Positions 2,932 to 26,436 of a stretch of DNA of 64,000 nt are shown piece after piece. Under the pieces are notes generated by a model that was not told the origin of the DNA, searched no databases, and saw only the letters and a list, made by a program, of their open reading frames with translations. Each line of letters begins with the position of its first letter. Positions within the stretch are counted from its first letter, which is position 1. This DNA comes from Spirochaetaceae bacterium (GTDB taxonomy: Bacteria; Spirochaetota; Spirochaetia; SZUA-6; Bin103). The position numbers and the translations under genes are program-made. The stretch is from the NCBI GenBank assembly GCA_028821475.1, contig JAPPGB010000047.1:1136-65135 (forward strand), written 5' to 3'.

Positions 2932-5100
2932 ATGGCAACGACCAGCATACTGATCGTCGATCGGAGCCTGGACCGTGCACACCACCTGGAGCAGGGCGTT
3001 CGCGGCCTCGGCTACGCGGTGTGCGGCGTCGCAACCTGCGGCACGGAGGCGGTCGCGCTCGCCGGCGCCGGTGGAGCCGACTTGGTGCTGATCGACGCCG
3101 CGCTCCAGGGGGAGGTGTCCGGGGCGGACGCCGCCGCGCAGATCGGCGCCCGCCTTGCGATCCCGGTCGTGTTCGTCGTCGACTCCGCCGCCGGCGACGA
3201 ATCGGCCGCGCCCGACCTGCACCGGCAGGCGGCAAGCCGGCCGTCCGGGTACGTGCTGCGCCCCGTGCAGTGGCGGCAACTGGACCTGATCATCCGCACG
3301 GCGCTCGCCGCACGCGCCCGCGAGCGGGAGCTGACCGCCGAACGGCGCGCACTGCGGCATCGGCTCGACCGACTGCAGGAGCTCAACCGGCAACTCGAGT
3401 CCGGGTTCGACTGCCTCGACGATGCCGTGATCCTCTTCGATCGCGAGCGCAGGCCGCTGTTCCCCAACGCAGCCGCGCGGCTCCTGTGCGGAGACGCGAT
3501 ACTGAATCCCGACGCCGACCGGTGGCTCGACGAGTACGAACTGTTCGAGGTGGACGGGACGACGCCGGTCGATCTCGAGGAGGGTCCGCTCAGAAAGGCG
3601 CTGCGCAGCACGCAGGCGGTAACCGCCGACATGTTCGTTCGCAGAAGGAACCGCCCCGGGGGTGCCTACGTCAACGTCACGGCCAAGCCGCTCGGCGACC
3701 ATCCGGACGGTCCGCGCGGGGGGATGCTCGTCATCCGCGAGGTAACTCGGCACCGGGAGCGCGACGCGCAACTGCACGACACGCTCGCGGAGTTGCGCGA
3801 GCAGAACGAGTTGATCGACGCCGCGTTCAAGAGCATCAGCGATGGCATCGTGGTGGCCAACGCCGAGGGCATGTTTCTGTACGTAAACCCGGCCGCCGAG
3901 CAGATCGTCGGCATGGGACTCACCGACGCTCCACAGGAGCAGTGGTCGCAGCGGTACGGCGCCTACTATCCCGACCGTGTAACCCCCATGCCTTCCGAGG
4001 ACCTGCCGCTGCTGCGTGCCATCCGGCGCCGCGAGTCGGTGGACGAAGAGGACCTGTTCATCCGCAACCCGGGCCGGCCCGACGGCGTATACGTGCGCGT
4101 GAGCGCCCGTCCGCTGCTCAACGACGTCGGCGGCGTCCGAGGCGGCGTGATCGTGTTCCGCGACGTGACGGTACGCAGATTCGCCGAAGAAGCGCTGACC
4201 AACGCGTTCGCCGAGGGCCGGTCGGAGGTACTCGATACGCTTGTGCACAACATCGGTAATGCGATCACCAGCGTCACCACCGGCGTGGAGACGCTGCGCC
4301 GGACGCTCGCGAACGACCCGCTGCAACGCTCCCTGGCCGGGCTGGCCGCGGTGCTCGACGAGCACCGCGACCACTGGCTGGAGTTCCTCCGCGACGACGC
4401 GCGCGGCCGGCAAGTCCTGCCCTCCATTCTCTCACTCGCGGCACACTACGAGACGCGCGGCCGTGCGCTGATGAAGACCATCCAACGGGTGCGCAACCGG
4501 GCGTGGCGGATTGCCGACGTGATCCGCACCCAGCGCGAGGTCGACAGCGCCGGCATGGACCGCTCGAACGTCGACCTGAAGGGAGCGCTGCGGAACGCGG
4601 TGCGGGTGGTGAGCGAGTCGCTCGACCGGGCTCGGGTCCGCACCACCGTCGACTGCCGAGGGGCGCCGCGCGAGATTCGCATTCGCGAGAGCCGGTTTCA
4701 CCAGGCGCTGGTCAACCTGATCAAGAATGCCGTCGAGGCGATCGACGACCGCGGCGCCACGGACGGGCGCGCCCCGGCCCCCCGCATCCGCATCTGCGCC
4801 TGGTCCGGCGACCGGTACCTGAACCTGGAGGTTGCCGACAACGGCATCGGCATCCCAAGCACGGATTCCAGCTTGCTGTTCGCCCCCGGATACACCACCA
4901 AACGGAACGGCAGCGGGCTCGGTCTGCACTCGGTGGCGAACTTCGTTATCGGTTCGGGTGGCCGCATTCAGGCCCTGAGCGACGGCGCCGGCAAGGGAAC
5001 GACCATGCGCGTCATGCTGCCTCTCTCATCGGTGCTCGTCGCCGCGCCGCCGGCCCCCGCGAGCGCCGGACGGAACGGCCCGGCGCGGGAGCGGTCGTGA
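2932..5100 (+). CDS. Hybrid sensor histidine kinase (degenerate N-terminal receiver, PAS domains, HisKA-like H-box, HATPase_c)
   Basis: The N-terminus is receiver-like (ILIVDRS...LVLIDAAL). The middle is PAS-like. The H-box is LVHNIGNAITSV, and the N/G1/G2 boxes are LIKNAVEAI...DNGIGIP...GSGLGL. The start is placed at the ATG at 2932; the ORF-track frame opens at 2827. Confidence 0.75.
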   Translation: MATTSILIVDRSLDRAHHLEQGVRGLGYAVCGVATCGTEAVALAGAGGADLVLIDAALQGEVSGADAAAQIGARLAIPVVFVVDSAAGDESAAPDLHRQAASRPSGYVLRPVQWRQLDLIIRTALAARARERELTAERRALRHRLDRLQELNRQLESGFDCLDDAVILFDRERRPLFPNAAARLLCGDAILNPDADRWLDEYELFEVDGTTPVDLEEGPLRKALRSTQAVTADMFVRRRNRPGGAYVNVTAKPLGDHPDGPRGGMLVIREVTRHRERDAQLHDTLAELREQNELIDAAFKSISDGIVVANAEGMFLYVNPAAEQIVGMGLTDAPQEQWSQRYGAYYPDRVTPMPSEDLPLLRAIRRRESVDEEDLFIRNPGRPDGVYVRVSARPLLNDVGGVRGGVIVFRDVTVRRFAEEALTNAFAEGRSEVLDTLVHNIGNAITSVTTGVETLRRTLANDPLQRSLAGLAAVLDEHRDHWLEFLRDDARGRQVLPSILSLAAHYETRGRALMKTIQRVRNRAWRIADVIRTQREVDSAGMDRSNVDLKGALRNAVRVVSESLDRARVRTTVDCRGAPREIRIRESRFHQALVNLIKNAVEAIDDRGATDGRAPAPRIRICAWSGDRYLNLEVADNGIGIPSTDSSLLFAPGYTTKRNGSGLGLHSVANFVIGSGGRIQALSDGAGKGTTMRVMLPLSSVLVAAPPAPASAGRNGPARERS

Positions 5101-16663: not shown

Positions 16664-17869
16664 ATGAGTGCAGCCTTCACCCCATCCTTGAGCCGGCAGC
16701 AGCTTGCCGACTTTCACGACGACGGCTACCTGATCGTGCGCGACGCCCTGTCCGCCAAGGAGGCCGCCGACCTGCGCGGCGTGGTCCGGGAACAGGTGCA
16801 GCGTGAGGCCTATCCGCCGCGTCGTTCCTACCCGGAACCGGCCAAGTACACCGTCAGCGGCAACCGGATGGCGGAACCGGGATTGGCGGCGATTGCCGAG
16901 CATCCAACGGTGGTCGGGGCCGTGGAGTCGGCGCTCGGCGGCCCGGCGCACCTGACCGCGTCGGTCGCCTACCTGCGCACGCCGGGCGACAAGGGCGGCG
17001 GCGCCCACTCCGACTACAAGCGCTGGCGCCCGGTCGGCTCGTCCATGAACTGGGTGTTTGCCATCGTGCCGCTGAACGACTTCGATCCTTCGTTCGGTCC
17101 GTTCATGGTGTCGCCGGGGTCGCACAAGCTGCCGCGGGTCATCGACCCACGGGCGCACGTCCTGGACCTGACCGCTCCCGACCGGGAGCAACTGCCGCCG
17201 TTCATCGATCCGGAGTTGAAGGCCGGCGACCTGCTGGTGGTCAACGAGCATGTCTGGCACCAGGCTCCCGCCGGCACCACCAGTGAGGACCGCTGCGGCA
17301 TCTTCAACAAGTACTGCGCCGCCGACGCGCCGCCCGCGGCGGGCTACTACCCGTACAACCGGGCCGCCTTGGAGGCCCTGAGCGACGCCGGCAAGCGCCT
17401 GCTGCCGGTCTGTTTCGACCGCCCGCTCACCACCACCCGGCTGCTGATCGAGTGCCCCACCGGTTTCGACTCCAGATTCCTGTTGTGCCGCGAGGCAGAT
17501 TCGGATGCGTGGGAACTGCCCGGCGGCGAAGGCTGGGAAGAGAAATCGTCCGGCTGGGACGTCGGCTCACGGATCGGCTCGCTGCAAGCGCTGGTGCACG
17601 CCCAGCTTGGGTTGGACGTGCCCTGGATGTCCTACATCGAAGACTGGGTCGAGGAGGACGGCGTGTGCCGGGTATACGGTTATGCCGCCGACAAGGTGAA
17701 AGTCGATGCACTGGCGAACGGCACCTGCGACTGGTTTACGCCCGGCGAAATGCGCTACAATTTGGGCGACGCTCACCCGATATGCTGCGCGCTCGATGCC
17801 TGGGAGCGGACCGACATCGTCCGCGGCAAGGGCAAGGCGTGCAGCCAGAGCAAGCATCAATTCGAATAG
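16664..17869 (+). CDS. Phytanoyl-CoA dioxygenase (PhyH) family Fe(II)/2OG oxygenase fused to a C-terminal Nudix-like domain with degenerate Nudix box
   Basis: PhyH-like core: HSDYKRW...NWVFAIVPL...FMVSPGSHKL...HVWHQA. The C-terminal 150 aa (RFLLCREADSDAWELPGGEGWEE...) have Nudix-fold architecture but lack REx2EE. Confidence 0.7.
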   Translation: MSAAFTPSLSRQQLADFHDDGYLIVRDALSAKEAADLRGVVREQVQREAYPPRRSYPEPAKYTVSGNRMAEPGLAAIAEHPTVVGAVESALGGPAHLTASVAYLRTPGDKGGGAHSDYKRWRPVGSSMNWVFAIVPLNDFDPSFGPFMVSPGSHKLPRVIDPRAHVLDLTAPDREQLPPFIDPELKAGDLLVVNEHVWHQAPAGTTSEDRCGIFNKYCAADAPPAAGYYPYNRAALEALSDAGKRLLPVCFDRPLTTTRLLIECPTGFDSRFLLCREADSDAWELPGGEGWEEKSSGWDVGSRIGSLQALVHAQLGLDVPWMSYIEDWVEEDGVCRVYGYAADKVKVDALANGTCDWFTPGEMRYNLGDAHPICCALDAWERTDIVRGKGKACSQSKHQFE

Positions 17870-18052
17870 CGCCTGGTCGAATGATATCCTCATCGGCGTG
17901 GCCGGCCACCTGCGGGACCAGTGTCGCGAACCCCGTGCCCAGCGTCATGCGCTATGAGCGTCCGGACCGCCCGGCAAGGGTCGAGTGGCCGCATCACGGC
18001 TGATGGTGGCAAGTGGCGATGACCGTCATTGGTCGGTATATTGTGGTGGCAC

Positions 18053-18394
18053 ATGGACTCGACGACGCTTTCGAAAGTCAGGGATTTCGTGCAGGAGGCC
18101 CTTGCTGAGGGCCATCCGCGCGGTGGAGTAGCATTCGGTCCGATCGAGGTGCGGCGTACCTATGACGCTGACGATGGCTCTCCGTATCTCCGCATCGTGA
18201 TCGTCTTCGACGGCTCCAAGGATGACCTTGATGTCGCGTGGTTGGGTGGCATGCCAAGGCGACTGCTAGCGAGGCTCTCGGATGTGGGGATAGAAGACTA
18301 TCCCAACCTTTCCTACGTGTCTAGCGAAGAATGGGGCAGTGGTGTGGAGAAATGGCTGAGCACGTATCCCGAAGTCAACATTGAATCCTGCTGA
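18053..18394 (+). CDS. Hypothetical protein (first gene of a low-GC two-gene islet)
   Basis: 113 aa from the ATG at 18053. Local GC is about 52-55% versus about 70% in the flanks. It overlaps the next ORF by 14 nt. It has a GS-KDDLD segment faintly reminiscent of a minimal nucleotidyltransferase motif but is not canonical. Confidence 0.4.
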   Translation: MDSTTLSKVRDFVQEALAEGHPRGGVAFGPIEVRRTYDADDGSPYLRIVIVFDGSKDDLDVAWLGGMPRRLLARLSDVGIEDYPNLSYVSSEEWGSGVEKWLSTYPEVNIESC

Positions 18395-18863
18395 TCTGCT
18401 GACCGCCGCCAGAAACTCGATCTTGGGTCTCGGGGCGGGTCGCCCTTTGCAAGCTACGCTTCGGCGGGCAGTCAGCACGATTTACTATGCAGCATTCACT
18501 TGTCTGGCCAATGTCTGTGCCGACAAGGTGGTCGGTCAGTATCGCAGTCTCGACGACAGCGGGAAACGAGCGTGGGTCCAAGTCTACCGCGCCGTGGATC
18601 ATGGGAAGGCAAAGAACCGTTGCAAGAACAACCAAATCATGGGCCAGTTTCCCTCGGCAATCCGTGACTTTGCTGCGCCGTTCGTAGACCTGCAGTACGA
18701 CCGTACGATTGCGGATTATGTTCCCTACGAGAACTTCTTCAAGGCTGAGGTTGACATACTCGCCGATACCGCTGAAGGAATAATTCACCGCTTCATGGGT
18801 CTTCCATCCGGCGTGCTTCGCGCCTTCGCGGTGTACGTACTGTTCGACTCACGGAAGAACTAA
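18381..18863 (+). CDS. HEPN-like domain protein (second gene of the low-GC islet)
   Basis: 160 aa. The pattern AADLLTAARNS...RRAVSTIYYAAFTCLANV...KRAWVQVY...YDRTIADY resembles PF05168-type HEPN helices with an R-x4-DY motif. The call is made by eye and is uncertain. Confidence 0.45.
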   Translation: MNPADLLTAARNSILGLGAGRPLQATLRRAVSTIYYAAFTCLANVCADKVVGQYRSLDDSGKRAWVQVYRAVDHGKAKNRCKNNQIMGQFPSAIRDFAAPFVDLQYDRTIADYVPYENFFKAEVDILADTAEGIIHRFMGLPSGVLRAFAVYVLFDSRKN

Positions 18864-18969
18864 TCGTGCGTTTCGGTTGTTCGTGGCGGCTGCTCCGTCT
18901 CACGTTGGCGGCGGAATCGCGGCGCGGTGCAGGTGATGGAATTGTTTCCGACTTCCTTGGCGGACGATT

Positions 18970-19743
18970 GTGAAGCTCGGCATTCTGGACACGTTTCGGC
19001 TGGACGGGCGGGTGGCGCTGGTGACCGGGGCCAGCCGCGGCTTCGGCGAGGTGATCGCCAGCGCGCTGGCGGAGGCGGGGGCGTCGCTGGCACTGCTGGC
19101 GCGCGGCGAGCGCGTGCAGGAAGTCGCGCGCGAGCTGAGCGCCGAGCACGGGGTGGCGTGCCGCGCCTACCGGTGCGACGTGAGCGACCCGGCCGCGGTG
19201 GAGCAGGCGGTGGCAGGTGTGATCGCGGACTGCGGCGGGCTTCACATCGTGGTGAACAACGCAGGCATCAACATCCGCGGGCCGATCGAGGAGCTGAGCC
19301 TGGAGCAGTTCCGGCAGGTGCAGGACACCAACCTCACCTCGATGTGGCTGGTGTGCCGTGCCGCCGCCGGCCACCTGAAGGAGCAGGGCTACGGACGGGT
19401 GATCAACATCGGCTCGCTGCTGTCGGTGCTCGGCATGGCCGAGCGCACCCCCTACGCGGTCAGCAAGGGCGGCGTGCTGCAACTCACCCGCGTGCTGGCG
19501 CTGGAGTGGGCGCAGGCCGGCATCACCGTCAACTGCATCATCCCCGGCATGTTCGCCACCGAGCTGAACCTCCCGTTGCTCGGCGTTCCCGAGATCGCCG
19601 CCCGCGTGGTGGCGAAGGTGCCGATGGGGCGCTGGGGCGAGCCGCGCGAGATTGCGGGGCTGGCCCTTTACCTGGCCGGCGATGCCGCGAGCTACGTCAC
19701 CGGCGCCGCGCTGACCATCGACGGCGGCTGGAGCGTGCACTGA
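18970..19743 (+). CDS. SDR family oxidoreductase (classical short-chain dehydrogenase)
   Basis: TGASRGFG cofactor motif, NNAG, and a YAVSK active-site motif. GTG start. Its stop overlaps the next gene's start (TGAGTG). Confidence 0.85.
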   Translation: MKLGILDTFRLDGRVALVTGASRGFGEVIASALAEAGASLALLARGERVQEVARELSAEHGVACRAYRCDVSDPAAVEQAVAGVIADCGGLHIVVNNAGINIRGPIEELSLEQFRQVQDTNLTSMWLVCRAAAGHLKEQGYGRVINIGSLLSVLGMAERTPYAVSKGGVLQLTRVLALEWAQAGITVNCIIPGMFATELNLPLLGVPEIAARVVAKVPMGRWGEPREIAGLALYLAGDAASYVTGAALTIDGGWSVH

Positions 19744-21036
19744 GTGAGCACCCTGGACATCCTGTTCCTGGAGCCGTTCTACGGCGGCTCGCACCGCGAG
19801 TTCGCCGACGGCCTGGTGCAGCACTCCCGCCACCGGATCGATCTGCACACGCTGCCGGCGCGCTTCTGGCGCTGGCGGATGCGCGGCGCCGCGCTCCACT
19901 TTGCCCGCGCGGTGGCGCGCCCGGCGGACTACGACCTGCTGCTGGTCACCGACCTGATGAACGTGGCCGACCTGAAAGCCCTGTGGGGAGCGGAGTGTCC
20001 GCCGATCCTCCTGTACGTGCACGAGAATCAACTCAGCTATCCGAAACCGGAGGGCGAGCAGCGCGACTTTCAGTTCGCCTTTACCGACATCGCCTCGGCA
20101 CTGGCCGCCGACGTGGTGGTGTTCAACTCCCGCTACCATCGCGACGCCTACTTCGCGGTGCTGCCGGAGGTGTTGCGGCGCATGCCGGAATACGAGCCGG
20201 CGTGGATTCCGGACGCGCTGGCGGCCAAGGCGCGCGTGCTGTACCCCGGCTGCCGATTGCCGGCGCCGTCCGTGGAACCGGCGCCGGGCGGCGCGACCGC
20301 GGTGCCGACTGTCGACCGCGGCCGTGCAGCCGAGCCTTGGTCGGCGCCGTCCTCGGAGAGCATGGGTCCGCCGGCGGCGTCCCCGCCGCCCGAGTCCCGC
20401 GCCGGCGGGGACGCCGGAGCAGCGGGACGGCAACCCGGCGCTGCCGACATCGCGTCAACGGTTGCGGGACCGGCACGTTGCGCGGTGAGGCCTGGAACAC
20501 CCCTGATGATATGGAACCATCGCTGGGAGTTCGACAAGCAGCCGGCGGCGTTCTTCGCCGCCCTGCGCAGGGTGCAGCGGGCAGGGGTGGCGTTCGAGGT
20601 GGCGTTGCTCGGCGAGAACGCCCAGTACGTGCCGCAGGAGTTCATCGCCGCGCGCAAATGGCTCGGAGAAAGGGTGGTACAGTACGGCTATCTGCCGAGC
20701 CGGGCGGCATACCTGGAGTGGCTTGGCCGCGGCTCGGTGGTGGTGTCGACCGCCATCCAGGAGAACTTCGGCATCTCGGTGGTGGAGGCGGTGGCGGCGG
20801 GCTGCCATCCGTTGCTGCCCAACCGGCTCGCCTACCCGGAAGTGATCCCGGCGGCCTTCCACGAAGAATGCCTGTACGACGGCGACGAGGCCCTGGCCGA
20901 CCGGTTGATCGCCCTGCTGTCGAGCCCGCCGGTGAAGTCGCCGCCGGGACTGGCCGCGGCCATGCGGCGCTACTCGTGGGCCTGCCTCGCTGAGGAATAC
21001 GACAACCTGTTCGACGCATGGCGGCGAATGGGCTGA
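19744..21036 (+). CDS. DUF3524/GTDC1-like glycosyltransferase (homolog of eukaryotic tRNA-queuosine mannosyltransferase) with internal low-complexity insert
   Basis: The N-terminus ILFLEPFYGGSHREF...LLYVHENQLSYP...QRDFQFAF...ADVVVFNS matches the GTDC1 N-domain. The C-terminus is GT1-like. An Ala/Pro/Gly-rich insert of about 80 aa sits between the two domains. Confidence 0.7.
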   Translation: MSTLDILFLEPFYGGSHREFADGLVQHSRHRIDLHTLPARFWRWRMRGAALHFARAVARPADYDLLLVTDLMNVADLKALWGAECPPILLYVHENQLSYPKPEGEQRDFQFAFTDIASALAADVVVFNSRYHRDAYFAVLPEVLRRMPEYEPAWIPDALAAKARVLYPGCRLPAPSVEPAPGGATAVPTVDRGRAAEPWSAPSSESMGPPAASPPPESRAGGDAGAAGRQPGAADIASTVAGPARCAVRPGTPLMIWNHRWEFDKQPAAFFAALRRVQRAGVAFEVALLGENAQYVPQEFIAARKWLGERVVQYGYLPSRAAYLEWLGRGSVVVSTAIQENFGISVVEAVAAGCHPLLPNRLAYPEVIPAAFHEECLYDGDEALADRLIALLSSPPVKSPPGLAAAMRRYSWACLAEEYDNLFDAWRRMG

Positions 21037-21243
21037 CCGGCAACGCGCGGTCGCCGCTGCCGAGGGGCGCCGCGGACGGGGTGCGGTGGCTGCGAATGTG
21101 TTCGCGGACCCGCTGGCGTGCCCAGCGAGCAGCGCGCGGAGCGGCGCGGCGACTGGCGCTGGTGCAGCCGCGAGCGACGGCGGCGGGATAGCGCGGCGGG
21201 CGCTCGTGAGGGGGCGCTCGAGTGCCGAGGGTGGGGGTTGCGT

Positions 21244-22011
21244 TCAGTCCCGGTAGGATGGGTCTTCGCGGTCCAGAATCGCTTGCAGTTCGCGGAAGTG
21301 GTCGTCGCTCAGATCCGGATAGTCGAGCCACTGCCGGCGTGTCGTCGCGGCCACCTGGTCGCAGGGGATCTTCAGTTCGCGCCCGGTTTGCAGCGCCGTG
21401 ATGTAGGTCTCGCAGGCGCGCTCGAAGTAGTACAGGTCGTCGAACGCCTGCGCAACCGTTGCGCCGATCACCATCACCCCGTGGTTGCGCATCAGCAGAA
21501 TCGGGTTGTCGCCGGCCATCGACGCCACCCGCTCCGCCTCGTCGTCCAGGCCCATGCCCTCGAACTGCTCGTCCACGGTCACGCGGCCCCAGAAGCGCAT
21601 CGCGTTCTGGTCGATCGGCGGCAGCGCCGGGTCGGCGAGGCAGGCGAGCACCGTGGCGTAGCGCGAGTGCACGTGCAGCAGGCAGCGCGCGTGCGGCACC
21701 CGGCGGTGGATGGCACCGTGCAGCCCCCAGGCGGTGGGGTCGGGGGCGTCCGGGCGCTGCATCGTGGAGTCGTCCTCGGCATCGAGCAGGAGCAGCTCGC
21801 CGGCCCGGATCAGCGAGAAATGGCGCCCGCGCGGGTTCATCAGGAAGCGCGTGCCGGCGTCGTTCACGGCCAGACTGAAGTGGTTGGCCACCGATTCGTG
21901 CAGGTCGTAGCGTGCCGCCCACCGAAACGCGCAGGCCAGCGCGATCCGCTCCTCGGCGTATTCCATTTCGGGATGACCGTGAGCTGCAAGTGCGAGTCGG
22001 TCGGCCGCCAT
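21244..22011 (-). CDS. Class II aldolase/adducin family protein
   Basis: The N-terminus is ERIALACAFRWAARYDL...NHFSLAV. His-rich metal site (HVHS, HGAIH). Start uncertain (M at 22011 or 21969; ORF open to 22113). Confidence 0.7.
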   Translation of the reverse strand: MAADRLALAAHGHPEMEYAEERIALACAFRWAARYDLHESVANHFSLAVNDAGTRFLMNPRGRHFSLIRAGELLLLDAEDDSTMQRPDAPDPTAWGLHGAIHRRVPHARCLLHVHSRYATVLACLADPALPPIDQNAMRFWGRVTVDEQFEGMGLDDEAERVASMAGDNPILLMRNHGVMVIGATVAQAFDDLYYFERACETYITALQTGRELKIPCDQVAATTRRQWLDYPDLSDDHFRELQAILDREDPSYRD

Positions 22012-22247: not shown

Positions 22248-22475
22248 ATGGACTATCGAGAGATCATCACTATTGAGCCGGGGAAGCGTGGGGGCAAGCC
22301 ATGTATTCGGGGGCTCCGCATCACCGTCTACGATGTTCTCGAATACTTGGCGTCAGACATGACTCGGGAAGAGATACTCGCCGATTTACCAGATCTTACA
22401 CCGGATGACATCAAGGCATGTCTATCTTTCGCGGCTGACCGAGAGCGCCGATTCGTCTCGGTACCGGCCGAGTGA
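22248..22475 (+). CDS. DUF433 domain protein (putative antitoxin)
   Basis: 75 aa, ...RGGKPCIRGLRITVYDVL..., with its stop overlapping the DUF5615 start. Local GC is lower than the flanks. Confidence 0.8.
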   Translation: MDYREIITIEPGKRGGKPCIRGLRITVYDVLEYLASDMTREEILADLPDLTPDDIKACLSFAADRERRFVSVPAE

Positions 22476-22804
22476 AGCTGCTCTTCGACCAGAATCTGTC
22501 GCCGCGATTGATCGACCGCCTTGCGAGTATGTATCCCGAATCCGCACATGTTCGGGATCTTGGTCTACACCGAGCCGTGGACCGGCAGGTGTGGAAACAC
22601 GCAGGTGAGAACGGTTACGCCATTGTCTCGAAGGACTCCGACTTCCATCAGCTGAGCTTTCTGTACGGACACCCGCCGAAGGTGGTTTGGATCCGGAGGG
22701 GTAACTGCACCACTAATGAAATCGAGGCGATACTGCGCGAGTTCTCCACACGGTTGGCTGAGTTCGACGCGGACGAGGCCGCATCGTACTTGGCAATCTC
22801 GTAG
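22472..22804 (+). CDS. DUF5615 (PIN-like/Mut7-C) protein, putative toxin partner of DUF433
   Basis: 110 aa, MKLLFDQNLSPRL...VSKDSDF. This is the canonical DUF433-DUF5615 pair arrangement. Confidence 0.75.
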   Translation: MKLLFDQNLSPRLIDRLASMYPESAHVRDLGLHRAVDRQVWKHAGENGYAIVSKDSDFHQLSFLYGHPPKVVWIRRGNCTTNEIEAILREFSTRLAEFDADEAASYLAIS

Positions 22805-25109: not shown

Positions 25110-25412
25110 TCAGTTGTCGCCTGGTTCGGACGGATCAAGAAGACGAGCACTGTGGTGGATCGTCAGGAGCTGGACTTCATCGCCAATCAGCCGATAGACG
25201 ATTCGGTAGTTGCCGTGAAGCATTTCCCGAATGTCGTCCCGATTTGACTCGGGTACAACTCTGCCAACCTGCGGAAACGATTCCAATGCTGATGCCTTAT
25301 CGACTATCTGGGTCGCGAAAACCTGGGGATAATTTCGGGAGTCGCGCGCGATCTAGGCACATATTGCTGCTACGTCTGCAAGCGCTTGCGGAGTCCATCT
25401 CAATCGAGCCAC
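25110..25412 (-). pseudogene. parE: ParE/RelE-family toxin with in-frame amber codon after codon 19
   Basis: GTG at 25412-25410 overlaps the antitoxin stop. The N-terminus ARLRWTPQALADVAAICA is followed by TAG (25353-25355), then IARDS...VFATQIVDKASALESFPQVGRVVPE...YRIVYRLIGDEVQLLTIHHSAR (ParE core). There is no alternative start downstream of the amber. Confidence 0.55.
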
Positions 25413-25597
25413 CTACGTAACCGCTGTCGTGCCTCGTCATGTGACACGGTAAGGCCGGCATCTGCTTGTTCTATGCCCTTTTCGATTTTGTGGAGCAGGA
25501 AGAGCCTCTCTATCGCATCCTCGATACTTGCATTCTCCGGCAGATTGCGAATCAAGCTTTCCATTTTCGATTTCATTGTTTTCATTGTTGATGGCAT
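25400..25597 (-). CDS. parD: ParD-like antitoxin (RK2 ParD-type)
   Basis: ...ESLIRNLPENASIEDAIERLF...ADAGLTVSHDEARQRLRRWLD resembles RK2 ParD (QYALERLF...GLAGKVST...). Start uncertain (candidates 25597, 25585, 25576, 25564). Confidence 0.5.
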   Translation of the reverse strand: MPSTMKTMKSKMESLIRNLPENASIEDAIERLFLLHKIEKGIEQADAGLTVSHDEARQRLRRWLD

Positions 25598-25683
25598 AGG
25601 ATTGAACCGGATCAGGAGTATAGCGGGGTCATCATCCGCCGTCCACTTGCGCCCGGGCGGCCAAGGCCGGTACCATCCGCGGC

Positions 25684-26436
25684 GTGACATCATCGACGAC
25701 CGACAGGATCGCCGTGCAGAGCTACTGCTTCCGCGGCTTTGCCAGCAACGAAGAGGTCGCCGCCAAGGCCGGGGAGATCGGGCTGGCGGCGGTCGAGCCG
25801 TGTGGCGTGCACGTCGACTTCGCCGACGAGGCCGCGCAGGACGCGGCCATCGCCGCGTACCGCGACGCCGGCGTGCGGCTGGTGAGCTGCGGAGTCAACT
25901 CGATCCGCGGCGACGGCAGCGGCGCCGAGTGCTACTTCCAGTTCGCCCGCAAGGCCGGCCTGCCGGTGATCAGCGCCGACGTCACCCCGCCGGCGTCGTG
26001 GGACACGTTCGCCGCCGCCGAGCGCCTGGCCGAGCAGTACGACGTGAACGTGGCGCTGCACAACCACGGCGGCGCGCACTGGCTCGGCAACGCGCAGATG
26101 CTGGAGGAGGTGTTCCGGCGCACCGGCCCGCGCATCGGGCTGATGTTGGACACCGCCTGGGCGATCGACTCGCGCGAGGACCCGGTCAAGATGGTGCGCC
26201 GCTTCGGCAACCGGCTGATGGGCGTGCACCTCAAGGACTTCGTCTACTCCCGCAACCGCGAACCGGTGGACGTGGTGATCGGCACCGGCATCCTCGACCT
26301 GCCCGCCCTGGTCACGGCACTGGGCGACGTCGGCTTCGACGGCGTGCCGATCATCGAGTACGAGGGCGACGTCAACAACCCGGTCCCGGCGCTCACCGAG
26401 TGCGTAAAGGAAATCGCCGCCGCCTGGAACCTGTAG
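25684..26436 (+). CDS. Sugar phosphate isomerase/epimerase (xylose-isomerase-like TIM barrel)
   Basis: 250 aa with conserved H/D/E metal ligands in TIM-barrel spacing (ALHNHGGAHW, MLDTAWA, EYEGD). Confidence 0.75.
   Translation: MTSSTTDRIAVQSYCFRGFASNEEVAAKAGEIGLAAVEPCGVHVDFADEAAQDAAIAAYRDAGVRLVSCGVNSIRGDGSGAECYFQFARKAGLPVISADVTPPASWDTFAAAERLAEQYDVNVALHNHGGAHWLGNAQMLEEVFRRTGPRIGLMLDTAWAIDSREDPVKMVRRFGNRLMGVHLKDFVYSRNREPVDVVIGTGILDLPALVTALGDVGFDGVPIIEYEGDVNNPVPALTECVKEIAAAWNL

Follow-up and report, generated by a model that had tools for sequence, protein, structure and literature searches.

Between a gene for a PhyH-family dioxygenase and an SDR gene, the 64,000-nt stretch of DNA analysed here (hereafter the window) contains a short interval of low GC content that encodes two small overlapping genes, termed A and B. 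The locus raises the question of what the two encoded proteins do together. The initial annotation took B for a HEPN-like protein joined to a partner other than the usual minimal nucleotidyltransferase (MNT), and regarded the pair as a candidate new toxin-antitoxin (TA) or abortive-infection module.

The low-GC islet and its two genes

The islet is flanked upstream by the PhyH-family gene (about 16670-17869; PF05721, E 8e-19) and downstream by the SDR gene (18970-19743; adh_short_C2, E 3e-65). Its coding features are as follows.

18053..18394, + strand: ORF A, encoding an acidic protein of 113 aa (pI 4.4), the founding member of an unannotated family and a putative antitoxin or partner protein
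18381..18863, + strand: ORF B, encoding a basic protein of 160 aa (pI 9.2) from a TTG start; putative toxin with a HEPN fold, belonging to a UPF0332-like clade
18381..18394, + strand: A/B overlap of 14 nt, TTGAATCCTGCTGA, with the TGA stop of A (18392-18394) over the TTG start of B

The mechanical ORF call begins A at a TTG codon (18029), and the form of 113 aa, the length given in the initial annotation, starts from the ATG at 18053. The 14-nt overlap was also found as described there, and it is likely that the translation of A and B is coupled through it. The start codon of B is misassigned by PGAP.

The GC content of positions 18029-18863 is 56.2%, lower than in any other 835-bp interval of the window, for which the mean is 68.1% (sd 3.9%). 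The islet is therefore the deepest GC trough of the window, although its GC content is slightly above the 52-55% originally reported. The same bias is found at third codon positions, with GC3 values of 0.65 for A and 0.64 for B versus 0.86 for the PhyH and 0.94 for the SDR gene. A scan of the islet flanks for repeats, promoters and terminators revealed no attC-like site, target-site duplication or convincing terminator, the sole element found being an 11-bp palindrome upstream of A.

Spurious ORFs are plentiful in high-GC genomes, and dozens are present in the ORF list of the window, so that A and B might have arisen by chance or be the remains of a decaying pseudogene in a spacer richer in AT. 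This explanation is hardly credible and is refuted by the presence of homologs across phyla, confidently folded models, a conserved overlap and dN/dS ratios far below 1. The latter, calculated against copies that are 61-90% identical in protein sequence, range from 0.12 to 0.32 for A and from 0.17 to 0.20 for B, indicating purifying selection on both. A and B are thus genuine genes. Metagenome assemblies contain 10 close homologs of A and 8 of B, all without a functional name.

Protein B, a UPF0332-like HEPN protein, and its partner A

Single-sequence scans of B against Pfam, NCBIfam and PADLOC gave no significant match, and these collections contain no model for either the A or the B family. 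The AlphaFold2 model of B is all-helical (pLDDT 74.5), and in a fold search it was recognised as the four-to-five-helix up-and-down bundle characteristic of HEPN domains. The Pfam HEPN family PF05168 was not matched by B itself at E<=1, no Pfam HEPN gathering threshold being reached, and was matched weakly by 13 of 45 relatives (best E 0.0012); NCBIfam gave no match for 18 diverse members of the family. A shallow profile of B found no match among PDB sequences either, and UPF0332/HEPN chains were reached only with a profile of 45 sequences, which matched 9xbd ('HEPN domain-containing protein', E 7e-6) and the UPF0332 protein AF0298 (2hsb, E 2.5e-5). These two chains align with the profile across the S-x-AYYAMFH as well as the R-x2-[SA]-D-Y motif, and several members of the B family carry the IMG annotation 'UPF0332 family'. 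B therefore has a HEPN fold and is homologous to the UPF0332 proteins, which bears out its earlier description as HEPN-like.

In the alignment of 45 sequences, residues S32, Y35, F39, W65, R70, H74, R108, A111, D112 and Y113 are invariant. They are located in the following motifs.

18462..18497, + strand: B residues 28-39, RRAVSTIYYAAF, helix-1 motif common to UPF0332 HEPN proteins (S-x-AYYAMFH)
18573..18602, + strand: B residues 65-74, WVQVYRAVDH, family-specific W-x3-Y-R-x3-H motif, candidate extra active-site element
18702..18725, + strand: B residues 108-115, RTIADYVP, R-x2-A-D-Y-x-P motif, located where HEPN domains have their active-site motif

The helix-1 motif, to which S32, Y35 and F39 belong, pairs with 'CSTAYYAMFHA' of AF0298 and 'MSRAYYAMFY' of 9xbd. 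The second motif, also written W-x3-Y-R-x3-H-G and containing the near-invariant Y69 besides its three invariant residues, is located within residues 42-103 of B. This part was left unaligned with AF0298, whose match comprises residues 6-41 and 104-144 of B, and the motif is likewise outside the match to 9xbd (residues 24-42 and 88-139). The R108 motif is aligned to 'RNRSDYD' in 9xbd and 'REESDYG' in AF0298; its usual form in the B family is RHxADY[DN]P, and the lineage of the window has T in place of H109. The first and third of these motifs, the latter written as R-TIA-DY, had been pointed out in the initial annotation and turned out to be family-defining. With the UPF0332/PF05168 proteins represented by AF0298 and 9xbd, B thus shares the fold, the helix-1 and R-x2-[SA]-D-Y motifs and the small single-domain architecture. 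It differs from them in being about 30 aa longer, with an extra N-terminal helix, and in having the W-x3-Y-R-x3-H-G insert and a conserved C-terminal helix (R-A-F-x-x-Y-V-L...R).

The canonical Rx4-6H endoRNase motif is missing in B, in which no His is located at +5 to +7 from R108. Since HEPN families devoid of this motif are known, its absence weakens the assignment of B as a canonical RNase and not the assignment of the HEPN fold; because B belongs to a UPF0332/PF05168-like branch without canonical Rx4-6H, RNase activity should not be assumed. Such activity is nevertheless possible in view of toxic motif-less precedents, as in a genome-wide screen in which some HEPN proteins without Rx4-6H were still toxic (PMC3710099).

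In the predicted model of A (pLDDT 80) a helix is followed by two strands, two further helices and a final strand, which corresponds to the alpha-beta-beta-alpha-alpha-beta topology of type II KH domains. Its central feature is a predicted hairpin.

18134..18214, + strand: A residues 28-54, FGPIEVRRTYDADDGSPYLRIVIVFDG, beta-hairpin predicted to form the core of A-family proteins

The strands of the hairpin in the model span residues 27-37 and 44-53, and the family consensus of this core is F-x-P-I-x-V...D-G-D-x-x-L-x-I-x-I-V-F-D-G-D. An alignment of 46 sequences of the A family contains neither invariant nor near-invariant columns. Nothing significant was found in single-sequence scans of A against Pfam, NCBIfam and PADLOC, no family recurred in Pfam searches with 46 members, and comparison of A profiles with PDB sequences produced noise alone (uL29m, HU and SAM synthase, E>0.4). 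Searches for HTH, RHH and AbrB domains gave no match, and the model contains no DNA-binding domain either.

The resemblance of A to type II KH domains (the C-terminal domain of Era, RbfA, KhpB/Jag and uS3) and to BolA/OsmC-like sandwiches is one of topology and not of homology. Unlike type II KH domains, A has no GXXG loop or conserved residue, and its pI is acidic. Among the 46 members only one matched KH_5, with an E-value of 0.15. Because Foldseek found no match to the model of A at E<=1e-3 and the GXXG loop is absent, A was not classified as a true KH domain, an assignment rejected as unproven. A can be described as a protein of alpha+beta type, small and acidic, with a KH-like topology, and represents an unannotated family.

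Assignment of A as an MNT was also rejected. In the HepT-MntA system, MntA is a nucleotidyltransferase (NTase) with a GSx10DxD motif that oligoAMPylates a Tyr of HepT, a proven RNase with an R-x4-H-x-Y motif (PMC7641770, PMC11586414). The A/B locus resembles this system in being a two-gene dyad with a small 5' partner followed by the HEPN gene, with frequent overlaps, mobility and multiple copies, and in having a conserved Tyr beside the motif Arg. However, A lacks NTase features, and B has R-x4-Y with no motif His at +5/+6. The absence of a canonical MNT motif from A, already noted in the initial annotation, was substantiated: no GS/DxD signature is present, and the GS-KDDLD stretch that does occur in A is not conserved across its family. 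It could still be argued that the locus is a degenerate HEPN-MNT (type VII) system, in which A would be a far-diverged minimal NTase still modifying Tyr113 of B. Such an origin would be in line with the 5' position and MNT-like size of A, with the conserved Tyr that B, like MNT-associated HEPN proteins, has retained in its motif region, and with a match of A to DUF294 (putative NTase) that is below threshold (E 0.028, 14.7 bits versus a cutoff of 21) and recurs in 2 of 46 members. Given the missing NTase features it is extremely improbable; the Foldseek search with the model of A retrieved one putative NTase, at rank 43 (E 0.16, TM about 0.3). The initial annotation had named as adverse to its proposal an A that proved to be a canonical MNT, or a B without HEPN matches in a pair of ORFs lacking homologs. 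What was found is a partner without NTase features, a B family profile matching HEPN chains, and conservation of both ORFs.

Pairing, distribution and mobility of the cassette

A scan of one genome per species yielded at least 538 B loci, and pairing was assessed on the best 80 of these. An A-family ORF directly adjoins B on the same strand in 79 of the 80 loci, across phyla, and the only unpaired locus is interrupted by a contig end. A is located upstream of B in 72 loci and solely downstream in 6. Of these 80 unrelated loci, 36 have a 14-nt overlap and 9 one of 4 nt; the 14-nt overlap is also present in the related loci L001-L008 and L018/L019. The same pairing was observed in independent metagenome, viral-contig and plasmid loci. 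A reciprocal search of JGI metagenomes with A found two loci, one with B and the other with a truncated remnant of B. A and B families are thus strictly adjacent and form an obligate module, a result that answers positively the check for co-occurrence of homologs recommended in the initial annotation. The partners differ in charge, with median pI values of 9.8 for the B and 4.8 for the A family. The pairing distinguishes the B clade from classical UPF0332 genes, which pair with MNT genes. A single candidate for a 'Rosetta stone' fusion of A and B (P0152) was dropped: it seems to result from a frameshift in A that led gene calling to join the two, and is therefore no evidence for fusion.

An exhaustive profile search for the B family retrieved 1653 cluster representatives at E<=1e-3, 695 of them at E<=1e-10. 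The family thus comprises at least 1650 clusters at 50% identity, from at least 538 species genomes and, judged by record titles, six or more phyla. Its carriers include Dehalococcoidia, Caldilineaceae, Alpha- and Gammaproteobacteria, Spirochaetia, Vicinamibacteria, Thermoanaerobaculia, Latescibacterota and Rhodothermales; cultured carriers include Thalassobaculum litoreum DSM 18839 and Rhodovulum adriaticum DSM 2781. Some genomes contain two copies of the cassette or tandem duplicates.

Comparison of copies at the DNA level delimits the mobile unit.

18033..18868, no strand assigned: extent of the mobile cassette, the sole stretch common to copies in other genomic contexts, with low GC and GC3

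Alignments (blastn) to copies located elsewhere, which are 71-82% identical in DNA sequence, span 18050-18868 (L014/L015), 18033-18632 (L016), 18053-18847 (L012) and 18073-18847 (L009), and the flanks remain unaligned. Similarity thus starts at 18033-18073 and ends at 18632-18868, comprising essentially the two ORFs alone. In nearly identical relatives (about 89% DNA identity) the cassette is found at the same PhyH/SDR site, and copies that are 62-75% identical in protein A adjoin sulfatase/GH32, PEP-hydrolase or ABC-transporter genes, which makes at least four differing contexts among related organisms. Homologs of B, annotated as 'hypothetical protein', are also encoded by 29 plasmids, of which 27 are from Rhizobium and 19 are conjugative. 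On plasmid p3 of R. leguminosarum GLR17 (NZ_CP071629.1, 199.6-200.5 kb), repB/repC are about 2 kb away from the pair, whose upstream A homolog was confirmed (E 1e-17). The cassette is therefore mobile and also plasmid-borne. The foreign composition, the varied contexts and the termination of DNA homology at the ORF borders agree with the horizontal acquisition proposed in the initial annotation. Since the module is found on R. leguminosarum plasmids, it was compared with rlegTA (Sberro et al.), which is a DUF1814/COG5340 system unrelated to A/B.

The genes neighbouring the cassette are mostly metabolic, accompanied by transposases and other TA pairs; the metabolic neighbourhoods are uninformative on function. 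These data bear on a possible role in abortive infection or phage defence, in which A would restrain B until a signal from a phage leads to the removal or titration of A, and B would then stop translation. This explanation overlaps with a TA function, the difference being that defence would be the selected function, and it appears unlikely. The neighbours are not those of defence islands, no match to the cassette was found in 50,697 phage genomes, and only two loci were present among 2.9 million IMG/VR contigs. PADLOC-DB v2 gave no significant match for either protein, and none for A; among the relatives, weak matches to HEPN_IX or PDC-M05B were found in 2-3 of 45 B proteins, and those for A were at noise level. 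The plasmid copy adjacent to repABC is equally compatible with plasmid maintenance. Of the two functions suggested in the initial annotation, the TA module is thus favoured by the pairing and the mobility, and nothing points specifically to abortive infection.

A putative toxin-antitoxin function

The islet is probably a self-contained, horizontally mobile two-gene cassette that functions as a type-II-like TA module. It has the general layout of type II systems, namely two small, adjacent, co-oriented and often overlapping genes that are co-inherited and mobile. Several further observations argue for this function. B has ten invariant, mostly polar or aromatic residues (n=45) versus none in A (n=46), and the charges of the proteins are complementary (pI 9.2 for B and 4.4 for A). 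The two genes are strictly co-inherited with occasional inversion of their order, their overlap is conserved and suggests translational coupling, and both are under purifying selection. The cassette also behaves as a selfish element, as judged by its lowest GC content, varied contexts, multiple copies and occurrence on plasmids. In HEPN dyads the antitoxin is usually encoded by the 5' gene (PMC3710099).

We infer that B is toxic, with RNA as its target, and that A neutralises it through direct binding. B would act as a basic single-domain HEPN toxin that binds or cleaves RNA, using a non-canonical centre formed by R108-x2-A-D112-Y113 together with R70/H74 and S32/Y35. A, a fast-evolving protein devoid of conserved catalytic residues, would serve as an acidic antitoxin that neutralises B by stoichiometric binding and not, as an MNT does, by AMPylation. 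Both genes would be co-transcribed and coupled through the 14-nt overlap, so that A is produced first and in step with B. Two features count against a TA function: B lacks Rx4-6H, with H109 replaced by T in the lineage of the window, and A has no recognisable DNA-binding domain. In most type II antitoxins a DNA-binding domain serves autoregulation, but this is not universal, RnlB, Dmd and MntA having none.

Alternatively, the cassette could encode a heteromeric complex that is not toxic, in which B would be a non-catalytic nucleotide- or RNA-binding HEPN protein and A a KH-like adaptor, jointly regulating an RNA or small-molecule process without addiction. The missing Rx4-6H motif is consistent with this possibility, as is the fact that the nearest sequence relatives of B are UPF0332 proteins with no assigned activity. 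The type-II-KH-like topology of the A model would also fit, by analogy with the RNA-binding domains of Era, RbfA and KhpB. Non-catalytic HEPN domains exist and have been proposed for motif-less PF05168 proteins (PMC3710099). However, the ten invariant polar or aromatic residues suggest that B has a specific site for catalysis or binding, and mobility, patchy distribution, multiple copies, plasmid location and anomalous GC content are typical of selfish modules and not of housekeeping regulators. Moreover, the acidic character of A and its lack of a conserved GXXG loop or any invariant residue speak against nucleic-acid binding. A non-toxic regulatory complex is thus considered improbable, and a TA module remains the preferred interpretation of the cassette.

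If B is such a toxin, its function would be most like that of the toxins of HepT-MntA and RnlA-RnlB, and by sequence it is nearest to UPF0332/PF05168 proteins. RnlA-RnlB and LsoA-LsoB are HEPN TA systems with anti-phage activity, but RnlA and LsoA are multidomain proteins of about 350 aa with an Rx4-6H motif, are encoded by the first gene and show no sequence similarity to B; the RnlB and LsoB antitoxin families are unrelated to A. The MAE_18760 HEPN-ParA/Soj dyads, predicted TA systems (Anantharaman et al. 2013), resemble the A/B pair in having a non-MNT 5' partner as the predicted antitoxin. They differ in that this partner is a P-loop ATPase, for which an enzymatic or conformational mechanism was proposed, and in that their HEPN protein belongs to another family. 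A literature search, of incomplete coverage, on UPF0332, on HEPN proteins with non-MNT or KH partners and on 9xbd found no description of the A/B pair. The locus is therefore of a known kind, a HEPN TA-like dyad, and its new elements are the partner family A and the non-canonical motif of B.

HEPN-MNT pairs probably rank with the most abundant TA systems, and the RNase motif is absent in the large, biochemically uncharacterised UPF0332/PF05168 branch of HEPN proteins. The cassette represents a sizeable sister clade of this branch that keeps the Arg...Asp-Tyr motif and gains an Arg/His pair, and in which a small acidic putative binding protein replaces the MNT enzyme. Tentatively, A and B may found a widespread, previously undescribed TA family, composed of a UPF0332-like HEPN toxin with an R-x2-A-D-Y + Y-R-x3-H centre and a non-enzymatic antitoxin of KH-like alpha+beta topology. 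Such a family would give the first clue to the actual role of UPF0332 HEPN proteins without the motif. Should B prove toxic, the pair would provide a simple two-protein system for the biochemistry of motif-less HEPN proteins as well as a new antitoxin fold, and cultured hosts and plasmids are on hand in Rhizobium leguminosarum, Thalassobaculum litoreum and Rhodovulum adriaticum. Profiles built from the A and B alignments would allow the annotation of hundreds of gene pairs now recorded as 'hypothetical protein'.

A second low-GC islet within the 64-kb window consists of a DUF433 + DUF5615 (PIN-like) gene pair and provides a precedent for the A/B islet, in that small two-gene TA-like cassettes do form GC troughs in this DNA.

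Sequence upstream of ORF A and solved relatives of ORF B

Two sequence features lie directly 5′ of the start codon of ORF A, the putative antitoxin gene of the cassette:

18019-18029, an 11-bp perfect palindrome, ATGACCGTCAT
18004 and 18044, two copies of TGGTGGCA(A/C)(G/A)TGG, with a spacing of 40 nt

The palindrome and the repeats are possible operator or ribosome-binding elements.

The family profile of ORF B, the HEPN-fold partner and putative toxin, matched two recent PDB entries, 9xbd and 9xbc, which represent a HEPN protein of 125-131 aa. A literature search found no paper on these entries, which are apparently unpublished. The aligned motif reads RNRSDYD in one and RNRSDFD in the other, a difference suggesting that the depositors are testing the tyrosine equivalent to Tyr113 of ORF B.

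Downstream genes and other low-GC islets in the window

The following features are located downstream of the cassette and the SDR gene:

19744-21036, glycosyltransferase gene with a QTMAN_N domain (tRNA-queuosine mannosyltransferase N-terminal domain; E 1.4e-62)
22248-22804, second low-GC islet (GC 0.57)
22248-22475, DUF433 gene in this islet (E 6e-25)
22472-22804, DUF5615/PIN-like gene in this islet (E 3.9e-36)
25201-25800, third GC trough (GC 0.56)
25400-25693, minus strand, 97-aa ORF inside the third trough

The gene order PhyH-SDR-QTMAN_N is retained in relatives. In three loci of close relatives (L001-L003, 8786-9456), a PIN and RHH toxin-antitoxin pair is present between the QTMAN_N glycosyltransferase gene and a class II aldolase gene, and this pair is absent from the corresponding stretch of the window (21036-21244); therefore, the strains differ in their toxin-antitoxin content.

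The DUF433 and DUF5615/PIN-like genes of the second islet overlap by 4 nt and form a further small TA-like cassette. Its location in a GC trough indicates that such modules are marked by GC troughs in this genome. The 97-aa ORF of the third trough has no Pfam match; visual inspection suggests a resemblance between its C-terminal half and small antitoxin-like proteins.

Organisation of the cassette in other genomes

An inverted arrangement, in which the ORF B homolog precedes an ORF A homolog of about 98-104 aa, was found at about 3000-3800 in each of the loci L064, L069, L071, L081, L084, L088 and L101. The hosts are several gammaproteobacterial MAGs, including Azotimanducaceae, one alphaproteobacterial MAG and one Dehalococcoidia genome. 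Some Dehalococcoidia and Rhodothermales genomes have ORF A genes, and sometimes whole modules, that are duplicated in tandem or nearby (L091, 2131-3011; L094, 2250-3020; L039, 1274-3011; L072, 316-2903; and L093). Several genomes, e.g. OZ251575.1, OZ241999.1 and OZ241343.1, carry two separate copies of the cassette.

In one metagenome contig (L106, 479-1100), an intact ORF A gene is followed by only the first ~23 codons of ORF B and then by unrelated sequence. Either a remnant that retains the antitoxin alone or chimeric assembly of the contig could account for this locus. The predicted 245-aa protein P0152, from the representative library, comprises the first half of an ORF A-type domain, ~30 unrelated residues and a full ORF B-type domain; a true A-B fusion was set aside, as the protein probably reflects a frameshifted ORF A gene joined through gene calling.

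The cassette also occurs on plasmid p3 of R. leguminosarum (L103, NZ_CP071629.1, 3629-4453), where the RefSeq/PGAP annotation of the ORF B homolog takes an internal ATG as the start (4136-4453, 105 aa). The conserved N-terminus begins near 4000, straight after the stop codon of ORF A, and the true start there is probably GTG. This mis-call looks systematic for the ORF B family.
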